A stretch of 64,000 nt of DNA from Escherichia coli (GCF_030384885.1 NZ_CP128613.1), one strand, 5' to 3'. Positions 6,695 to 7,795 are shown, counted from the stretch's first letter. A program made the numbers and translations. Notes: generated by a model not told the origin, from the sequence alone.

Positions 6695-7795
6695 ATGAAA
6701 TTAAAAATAGTTGCGGTGGTTGTAACTGGTTTGTTAGCTGCGAACGTAGCACATGCTGCCGAAGTATATAACAAGGATGGTAATAAACTCGACCTTTATG
6801 GCAAGGTTACCGCTCTACGTTATTTTACTGATGATAAGCGTGACGATGGTGATAAAACTTATGCCCGTCTCGGTTTTAAAGGAGAAACGCAAATCAATGA
6901 TCAAATGATTGGTTTTGGTCACTGGGAATATGATTTTAAAGGCTATAACGATGAAGCCAACGGCTCGCGCGGCAACAAAACCCGCCTTGCCTATGCAGGT
7001 TTAAAAATTAGTGAATTTGGCTCTCTGGACTATGGTCGTAACTACGGTGTCGGTTATGACATTGGTTCATGGACCGATATGTTGCCAGAATTTGGTGGCG
7101 ATACCTGGAGCCAGAAAGATGTCTTCATGACATATCGTACCACTGGTGTGGCAACCTATCGCAACTACGATTTCTTTGGCTTAATTGAAGGGCTGAACTT
7201 TGCCGCACAATATCAAGGCAAAAATGAACGCACTGACAACGCTCATCTTTATGGTGCTGACTATACGCGTGCCAATGGTGACGGTTTCGGTATCTCCTCA
7301 ACTTATGTTTATGATGGCTTTGGGATCGGTGCTGTGTATACCAAATCTGATCGGACAAATGCGCAGGAAAGAGCAGCGGCTAATCCTCTCAATGCCTCCG
7401 GTAAGAATGCAGAACTGTGGGCAACAGGTATAAAATATGATGCCAACAACATTTACTTTGCAGCTAATTACGCTGAAACATTAAACATGACCACCTATGG
7501 TGATGGTTATATCTCTAACAAAGCACAAAGTTTCGAAGTGGTGGCCCAATATCAATTCGACTTCGGCTTGCGCCCATCACTCGCTTACCTGAAATCAAAA
7601 GGCAGAGATCTGGGGCGTTACGGCGATCAGGACATGATTGAGTATATCGACGTTGGTGCAACGTATTTCTTCAACAAAAATATGTCGACCTATGTTGATT
7701 ATAAAATCAACCTGATCGATGAAAGCGACTTTACCCGTGCCGTAGATATTCGCACCGATAACATCGTCGCAACGGGCATTACCTATCAGTTCTAA
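6695..7795 (+). CDS. Outer-membrane general porin, OmpC/OmpF/PhoE family, intact, 366 aa
   Basis: Signal peptide [21 protein letters not shown], beta-barrel residue pattern and terminal aromatic F; SD aagga upstream. K-12 has only a fragment (yddL) here, from memory. Confidence 0.8.

Follow-up and report, generated by a model that had tools for sequence, protein, structure and literature searches.

The window analysed here is a 64,000-nucleotide stretch of Escherichia coli DNA (GCF_030384885.1, NZ_CP128613.1). It carries fdnI, fdnH, and fdnG on the minus strand, followed on the plus strand by yddG, a porin gene, two LRR genes, narU, and narZ. The upstream neighbor of the porin is the conserved gene yddG (5554–6435, plus strand), which encodes an aromatic amino-acid/DMT exporter and marks the orthologous position. 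This call passes the NCBIfam YddG equivalog at 472 bits against a cutoff of 194 and agrees with the RefSeq annotation. An in-frame TGA is found in fdnG at 4735–4737 on the minus strand, between ARV and HGPT, within what RefSeq gives as one continuous 1,015-codon gene; it is the known selenocysteine codon of formate dehydrogenase-N and not a disruption.

The porin coding sequence runs from 6695 to 7795 on the plus strand (366 codons and a stop, with an ATG start). The first 21 codons (6695–6757) encode a typical signal peptide and the following 345 (6758–7792) the mature porin, while a Shine–Dalgarno sequence, AAGGA, is found at 6681–6685, 9 nt before the ATG. An earlier note, made from the sequence alone, had described a complete 366-residue porin of the OmpC/OmpF family with a signal peptide, its own Shine–Dalgarno sequence, and a strong terminator; the coordinates and all of these features are confirmed, and the family membership is borne out by both profile and structure matches. 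The protein matches Pfam Porin_1 (PF00267) over the full length of the profile (positions 1–337 of 337, E = 2e-134), and residues 22–366 align with solved OmpC, OmpK36, and OmpF chains in a PDB search (E ~1e-127). In the alignment, the mature N terminus left by cleavage after AHA corresponds to residue 1 of the crystallized porins. The protein ends in YQF, with the C-terminal phenylalanine that serves as the beta-signal for assembly. An AlphaFold model built with 31 homologs, of moderate confidence (pLDDT 71), shows 16 strands and an L3 segment with a helix. The model compares to OmpC (2J1N) with TM-scores of 0.85/0.90, and the range across OmpC 2J1N, OmpK36, and OmpF is also 0.85–0.90. Judged from its sequence, the gene is intact and its product is a general porin in the OmpC/OmpF family. 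The stretch that holds it (6436–7960) is 100% identical to strain 2013C-4282 (NZ_CP027579.1), and over the wider 5.5-kb locus identity is 99.9%, the lengths differing by 6 nt.

The pore-defining residues of this family are all retained. The constriction residues known from OmpF as K16, R42, R82, R132, D113, and E117 correspond in alignments to K37, R58, R97, R148, D128, and E132 of the window porin, and all six are invariant. The PEFGGD motif of the constriction loop L3 (residues 131–136, 7085–7102, plus strand) is also kept. Across 31 porins there is no variation at P131, E132, or G134, and conservation at F133, G135, and D136 is 90% or more; in a 7-porin alignment all six residues are invariant. 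The constriction residues, the PEFGGD motif, and the YQF terminus together point to a nonspecific diffusion channel of the OmpC/OmpF kind. The protein would be a classical general-diffusion porin, exported by Sec and folded as a 16-stranded beta-barrel that is presumably trimeric. Small hydrophilic solutes would cross a pore narrowed by L3, where D128 and E132 face the basic residues K37, R58, R97, and R148. Both trimer formation and the substrate range are inferred features of this porin.

The position of the gene is shared well beyond E. coli. In a synteny sample of 80 recovered loci, with one genome per species, the fdnG–yddG–porin order was found in Escherichia albertii, 13 Citrobacter, 12 Enterobacter, two Lelliottia, Intestinirhabdus, a MAG labelled Raoultella, and Salmonella enterica subsp. 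arizonae. At 31 loci from other named species and genera, yddG lies directly 5′ of the porin on the same strand, and a porin of the same clade is found downstream of yddG in at least seven genera and E. albertii. The E. albertii counterpart is 92% identical to the window protein. In E. hormaechei, the ompD gene that has been studied adjoins yddG, and a single deletion disrupts both yddG and ompD (PMC11874173).

Sequence comparison gives the same answer as position. The earlier note had called for an alignment to OmpC, OmpF, PhoE, OmpN, and NmpC, and all of these are less similar to the window protein than is OmpD: identity is 74% to the Salmonella proteins that carry the name OmpD at NCBI, 68% to NmpC and Lc, and 59–63% to the K-12 OmpC, OmpF, PhoE, and OmpN proteins. 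Bit scores show the same ranking, with 580 for Salmonella OmpD against 425 for E. coli OmpC and ~429 for OmpK36, the latter two in the PDB. In a neighbor-joining tree, the porin falls inside the OmpD/NmpC/Lc clade. The signal peptide is of the OmpD type, MKLK(L/I)VAV.VT..LAA, unlike those of OmpC, OmpF, OmpN, and NmpC. Position, sequence, and signal peptide together indicate that the porin is, by these comparisons, the positional ortholog of the OmpD proteins of Salmonella and Enterobacter. The Escherichia OmpD ortholog would have been inherited vertically at its ancestral site just 3′ of yddG. The earlier note had counted as refuting its reading an ordinary allele of a known porin, present in most strains and lacking LRR linkage in other genomes. 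This applies in part, since what was found is the ordinary ortholog of an already known porin, with no LRR linkage outside Escherichia.

Two side observations concern the wider porin set. In Enterobacter vonholyi and Enterobacter chuandaensis, the yddG-adjacent porin groups with OmpC and is 61% identical to the window protein, and the porin type at the yddG site appears to have been replaced in these species. The 90%-identity protein cluster of the window porin is represented by a 603-residue LepA (elongation factor 4) and includes several LepA proteins; the cluster is an artefact of the protein collection, and it explains why the porin's own cluster does not head the homology search.

Downstream of the porin are the genes for EspR2 and EspR1, which belong to a T3SS effector family. 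LRR1 (EspR2) is an intact open reading frame of 419–421 codons at 7959/7965–9224, and LRR2 (EspR1) is an open reading frame at 9286–10536, both on the plus strand and named after PMC5931665, where EspR1 is ECs2073 and EspR2 is ECs2074/2075, a pseudogene in Sakai. LRR1 contains a run of eight serine residues and accounts for the 6-nt excess over strain 2013C-4282. The terminator that follows the porin and the two LRR genes make up a low-G+C, Escherichia-specific block (7794–10670, plus strand). In E. albertii this block is absent: the match to the window continues through the porin stop (7793) and resumes at 10671, leaving a 2.9-kb gap, and this indicates that the terminator and LRR block are confined to E. 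coli and its nearest relatives. At none of the 31 loci from other named species and genera does the yddG-linked porin have an LRR gene beside it. The sole LRR match outside is a 1.9-kb Escherichia-like contig in a MAG bin labelled 'Collinsella sp.' (JAIJJM010000616.1, 1–1931), with an Escherichia-type porin (86% amino acid identity) followed by LRR1 (81%). The contig is almost certainly mis-binned, and its OmpC/NmpC-like signal peptide (MKRKVLAMLVPALLVAGAANA) suggests a recombinant 5′ end.

The earlier note had also suggested that the porin and the LRR genes are inherited together as a unit, and this stands only as far as physical linkage within E. coli. Among the genomes with the full-length porin described below, 1,009 of 1,101 also hold at least 80% of the stretch covering the porin 3′ end and the LRR genes, and single deletions remove the porin and LRR parts together. 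A common origin or a shared transcript is not supported, given the 31 loci without LRR genes, a drop in G+C, the intervening terminator, and independent decay. The G+C content is 43.5% in the porin and 33.1% and 34.5% in the LRR genes. In O157:H7, EspR2 is split while EspR1 and the porin are intact, strain TUM1223 shows LRR decay beside an intact porin, and in K-12-type genomes LRR remnants persist without the porin. From the sequence comparisons, the link between the porin and the LRR genes is one of adjacency, not of common origin or cotranscription. The EspR2 and EspR1 genes would represent a later insertion between the porin and narU that is not functionally coupled to the porin.

The published account of this locus differs. 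Okeke et al. (2011) described it as enterohemorrhagic E. coli (EHEC) O-island 62 (z2239–z2242), located between yddG and narU, and treated it as an island of 33–36% G+C that was recently acquired as a whole (PMC3079680). The two descriptions concern the same locus, with z2239 corresponding to the porin, z2240/z2241 to LRR1 (EspR2), and z2242 to LRR2 (EspR1). If the porin and both LRR genes had arrived as one horizontally acquired island, the empty yddG–narU site would be the ancestral state in E. coli. Such a site is clean in 1,135 genomes, where the porin and LRR genes are missing together (6521–10674), and a single acquisition would also accommodate the co-occurrence in 1,009 of 1,101 genomes and a porin G+C content below that of the flanks. 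We regard this history as improbable, since a porin of the same clade occupies the same site on the same strand in at least seven genera and E. albertii, all without LRR genes, and its promoter and 5′ untranslated region are conserved with other genera. The G+C content steps down by ~10 points exactly at the end of the porin, and 43–45% is normal for minor porin genes (phoE, 44.7%; ompN, 46.6%), making the porin value ordinary. The independent decay of the porin and LRR parts argues in the same direction, and vertical inheritance of the porin with later arrival of the LRR genes remains the preferred reading.

Conservation across genera extends upstream of the coding sequence. When 10 upstream regions are aligned, a GATCACA block (6543–6549, plus strand) is invariant across genera and, as judged from sequence, could represent one half (the right) of a CRP-type site. 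Only the right half (TCACA) of this putative site, centered ~−80.5 from the proposed start, is conserved, with 3/5 matches in the left half; given the single conserved half, a full CRP site is kept only as a weak suggestion. Cross-genus conservation also points to a putative promoter at 6586–6615 on the plus strand, consisting of a −35-like TTGTTT (6586–6591), an 18-nt spacer, and a −10-like TAAAAA (6610–6615). The published Salmonella ompD start aligns to position 6622 of the window, 7 nt past the −10 box. In Salmonella, ompD transcription starts 69 nt before the ATG, a figure derived from the equivalence of mRNA position 152 and coding position 83, and yields an AU-rich, Hfq-binding leader (PMC4911921). 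By analogy, the window porin would have an AU-rich 5′ untranslated region of 73 nt (6622–6694, plus strand). A consensus promoter scan did not return this conservation-based promoter, which we attribute to the weak −35 element; its 10 hits do not clearly exceed the number expected from shuffles (6.2 ± 2.3).

At the other end of the gene, folding identifies an intrinsic terminator (7807–7840, plus strand) that starts 11 nt past the stop codon. It has a 9-bp G+C-rich stem at 7807–7830 with a 6-nt loop, followed by the T-run TTTTTGATTT. The centroid structure has an energy of −17.7 kcal/mol (z −3.8), and 0 of 200 shuffles fold as well. The conserved promoter, the aligned start, and the terminator suggest that the porin is a monocistronic unit. 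The gene would be transcribed alone from the conserved promoter, starting ~73 nt 5′ of the ATG, to the intrinsic terminator; both the promoter and the start are inferred from sequence conservation. An Rfam scan of 5000–12000 at E ≤ 1 found no RNA family.

The synteny comparison across strains that the earlier note had proposed was carried out on 5,426 complete E. coli genomes, and it separates intact, stub, and empty states, with counts that reflect DNA coverage and not checked reading frames in a collection skewed to clinical strains. At least 80% of a 1.5-kb porin query, taken as full length, is held by 1,101 genomes. Another ~3,180 genomes give a partial match, and most of them keep approximately the first 540 bases of the query, corresponding to the promoter and 284 nt of coding sequence (the yddL state). 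The site is empty in 1,135 genomes, where the gap between yddG and narU is 272 bp and the segment 6521–10674 is missing; this number agrees with the 1,148 genomes that have no match to the porin query. In strain PSJ-07, an IS1 element replaces the whole block. At least three different deletions account for the loss of the porin, which is missing from ~80% of complete genomes.

K-12 is an example of the stub state, and the claim of the earlier note that K-12 retains only the fragment yddL is correct. In MG1655, the interval between yddG and narU holds yddL (b1472, 291 nt), which contains only the 5′ part of the porin, along with yddK and yddJ. Homology to K-12 stops at 6978, 284 nt into the porin gene, leaving approximately the first 94 codons. 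The deletion found in K-12 and BL21 types covers 6979–8519 and removes the last 817 nt of the porin, the spacer, and the 5′ end of LRR1. At a second junction in these strains, 8842 is joined to 9480, and the two junctions have overlaps of 6 nt and 12 nt. K-12 yddL is a 5′ stub that resulted from one porin deletion. The stub (6436–6978) keeps the putative promoter, the leader, the Shine–Dalgarno sequence, the signal peptide, and ~73 mature residues. With this set from promoter to signal peptide in place, it could still give rise to a transcript and to an exported, truncated peptide.

The neighboring K-12 gene yddK consists of a segment of LRR1 (8520–8842) joined to the 3′ part of LRR2 (9480–10536) with the 12-nt overlap. 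The junction overlaps indicate a chimera of LRR1 and LRR2. From its sequence, yddK is a deletion chimera and not an inserted gene as had been proposed (PMC3079680). A further observation concerns the right side of the locus, at 10671–10700, where three independent boundaries lie no more than 5 nt apart, just before the palindrome GTTACATTTAGTAAC upstream of narU. These are the restart of E. albertii homology (10671), the right-hand limit of the empty-site deletion (10675), and the end of the LRR block. The cluster of boundaries is probably the edge of a constrained narU control region.

Where the porin is kept, its protein sequence is highly constrained. Compared with the O157:H7 allele, the window porin has 37 synonymous and 4 nonsynonymous differences (dS 0.17, dN/dS 0.027), and the comparison with E. 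albertii gives a dN/dS of 0.026. Values of ~0.03 indicate strong purifying selection on the protein. The exact 366-residue protein is found on at least 858 contigs under inconsistent names that include OmpC, PhoE, and 'outer membrane porin'.

Codon usage gives a different impression of how the gene is used in E. coli than in its relatives. By Wright's Nc, the window porin (51.5) has the weakest codon bias among the porins compared, the K-12 values being 29.0 for ompC, 37.1 for ompF, 40.4 for ompN, and 46.3 for phoE. Bias is strong in the orthologs from Salmonella (37.7), E. hormaechei (29.3), and Citrobacter sedlakii (33.9), and OmpD is the dominant porin in S. Typhimurium (PMC4215857).

Predicted small RNA pairing also differs between the systems. 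Salmonella ompD has published sites for RybB, SdsR, and MicC, the last at codons 23–26 (PMC3333887, PMC4911921). In a control using RNAduplex with E. coli MicC, RybB, and SdsR, the published sites were reproduced in Salmonella arizonae. With the window porin, and with a mononucleotide shuffle as the null, predicted pairing of MicC and SdsR is no better than that of shuffles (z +0.73 and +0.22). RybB is predicted to pair at −14.3 kcal/mol (z −0.65). The RybB seed target GCAGUGGC reads GCGGUGGU in the window porin and pairs only via two G–U wobbles. By these predictions, the window porin lacks the MicC and SdsR sites of Salmonella and has a weakened RybB seed. Salmonella-type control of the E. 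coli porin was set aside, with none of the three predictions exceeding shuffles. Since the sites are not kept, the regulation described in Salmonella is not simply transferable. Weak codon bias together with loss of the MicC and SdsR sites suggests that, as far as sequence can tell, this is probably a minor or conditionally expressed porin in E. coli and not a dominant one.

The same attributes could be taken further, to a porin that is structurally intact yet functionally silent, a relic on the way to loss with no present role. An Nc of 51.5 and repeated loss would both fit a gene that stays mostly silent, ~80% of complete genomes lack the porin through several independent deletions, and the regulatory sites known from Salmonella are weakened or gone. 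We give this explanation little weight. A relic would not be expected to show a dN/dS of ~0.03 both within E. coli, at a dS of 0.17, and against E. albertii. The pore residues, promoter blocks, Shine–Dalgarno sequence, and terminator are all intact, and the identical protein recurs across the contigs noted above. A dispensable gene under continuing selection where it is retained is the reading we favor. In E. coli the porin would have become a dispensable third porin, probably weakly or conditionally expressed, and the lineages that retain it would hold its protein sequence tightly.

Two proposed identities fare worse still. RefSeq/PGAP names the gene 'ompC: porin OmpC', and the protein does pass NCBIfam NF007841 'porin OmpC' (496 bits against a cutoff of 484) and finds its best PDB matches in OmpK36 and OmpC, though no chain named OmpD is among the PDB results. 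That the gene is a duplicate or an allele of ompC is nonetheless a negligible prospect: NF007841 is a subfamily model, not an equivalog, and is passed by a margin of only 12 bits, the porin is 62% identical to K-12 OmpC against 74% to OmpD, and it lies at the yddG locus, away from K-12 ompC, which sits at 2.31 Mb beside ftp and has a different signal peptide. The porin fails the OmpF and PhoE equivalogs. A prophage-type porin (NmpC/Lc) is scarcely credible either, even though NmpC and Lc belong to the same broad clade and nmpC has been equated with ompD by Fröhlich et al. (PMC3333887) and in an APEC GWAS (PMC10321414), because no phage gene is found near the porin, its neighbors are the core genes fdnGHI, yddG, and narU/narZ, and NmpC and Lc are only 68% identical with another signal peptide. 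On sequence, locus, and signal peptide, both OmpC and NmpC were rejected as identities.

The gene is already annotated, its family is well known, and the locus has been published. Okeke et al. saw the similarity of yddL to the 5′ end of z2239 and found O-island 62 in O157, O55, group D strains, and some Shigella, but z2239 was never named a porin, and the K-12 arrangement was explained by 'insertion of yddK' (PMC3079680). A 2023 survey lists yddL as an uncharacterized 96-residue beta-barrel 'dark' gene with a possible role in osmotic stress (PMC9976479). The label 'ompD' in E. coli papers is mostly automated and is often used for nmpC. A literature search on yddL, ompD with yddG, Z2239/ECs2076, and EspR1 turned up no work on the function of the E. 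coli porin. What is new is interpretive: the porin is recognized as an OmpD ortholog, O-island 62 as composite, and yddK as a chimera, and to these are added the weak bias in codon usage and the loss of sRNA sites.

Overall, we consider it highly likely that the window holds an ancestral, vertically inherited OmpD-type porin with its own transcription unit that is now a dispensable minor third porin, and that the LRR genes are later arrivals uncoupled from it. The main value of this reading is annotation correction, as more than 1,000 complete E. coli genomes label the OmpD ortholog 'ompC'. The 'dark' gene yddL is recast as simply the 5′ stub of an OmpD-type porin, and O-island 62 becomes a composite of an ancestral porin and an acquired effector gene pair. 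The sRNA literature takes prophage nmpC as the E. coli ompD, while the positional ortholog is the yddG-linked porin. Where porin loss and antibiotic permeability are studied in O157 and group D strains, the gene ought to be included.

A bolder extension can be offered only tentatively and is, on balance, doubtful: lineages that keep the porin (O157:H7 and, following Okeke et al., group D strains) may possess a third general porin, expressed conditionally, that is free of MicC/SdsR control and has been overlooked. The reasons for this would be its annotation as 'OmpC' or 'PhoE' and the equation of ompD with prophage nmpC. If true, the third porin could be relevant to how beta-lactams and carbapenems get in, to phage adsorption, and to recognition by antibodies in these lineages, much as OmpD is in Enterobacter and Salmonella.

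Comparison with the known systems places the window porin closest to OmpD of Salmonella and Enterobacter. They share position, strand arrangement, clade (72–74% identity), signal peptide type, conserved promoter blocks, a leader of similar length, and the pore-lining residues. The E. coli protein differs in sitting on a long Escherichia branch and in loop indels, being longer at 178–193 and shorter near 268–272 in the alignment; the differences from Salmonella OmpD concentrate as indels in inter-strand segments and surface loops. The E. coli locus has the EspR2 and EspR1 genes downstream, which are found in none of the Salmonella and Enterobacter loci, and only ~20% of complete E. coli genomes hold the porin at all. 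The K-12 porins OmpC, OmpF, PhoE, and OmpN are alike in fold (TM-score 0.85–0.90), constriction residues, the PEFGGD and YQF motifs, and the mature N terminus AE(V/I)YNKDGNK, but are only 59–63% identical and have other loci and other signal peptides. NmpC from the DLP12 prophage and Lc from phage PA-2 share the OmpD/NmpC/Lc clade; being prophage-borne, 68% identical, and equipped with another signal peptide, they would be paralogs or xenologs. Compared with O-island 62 of O157, LRR1 is intact in the window and frameshifted in O157, and where the island account has the whole block acquired, the porin appears to be ancestral, with only the LRR block foreign and yddK a deletion chimera.
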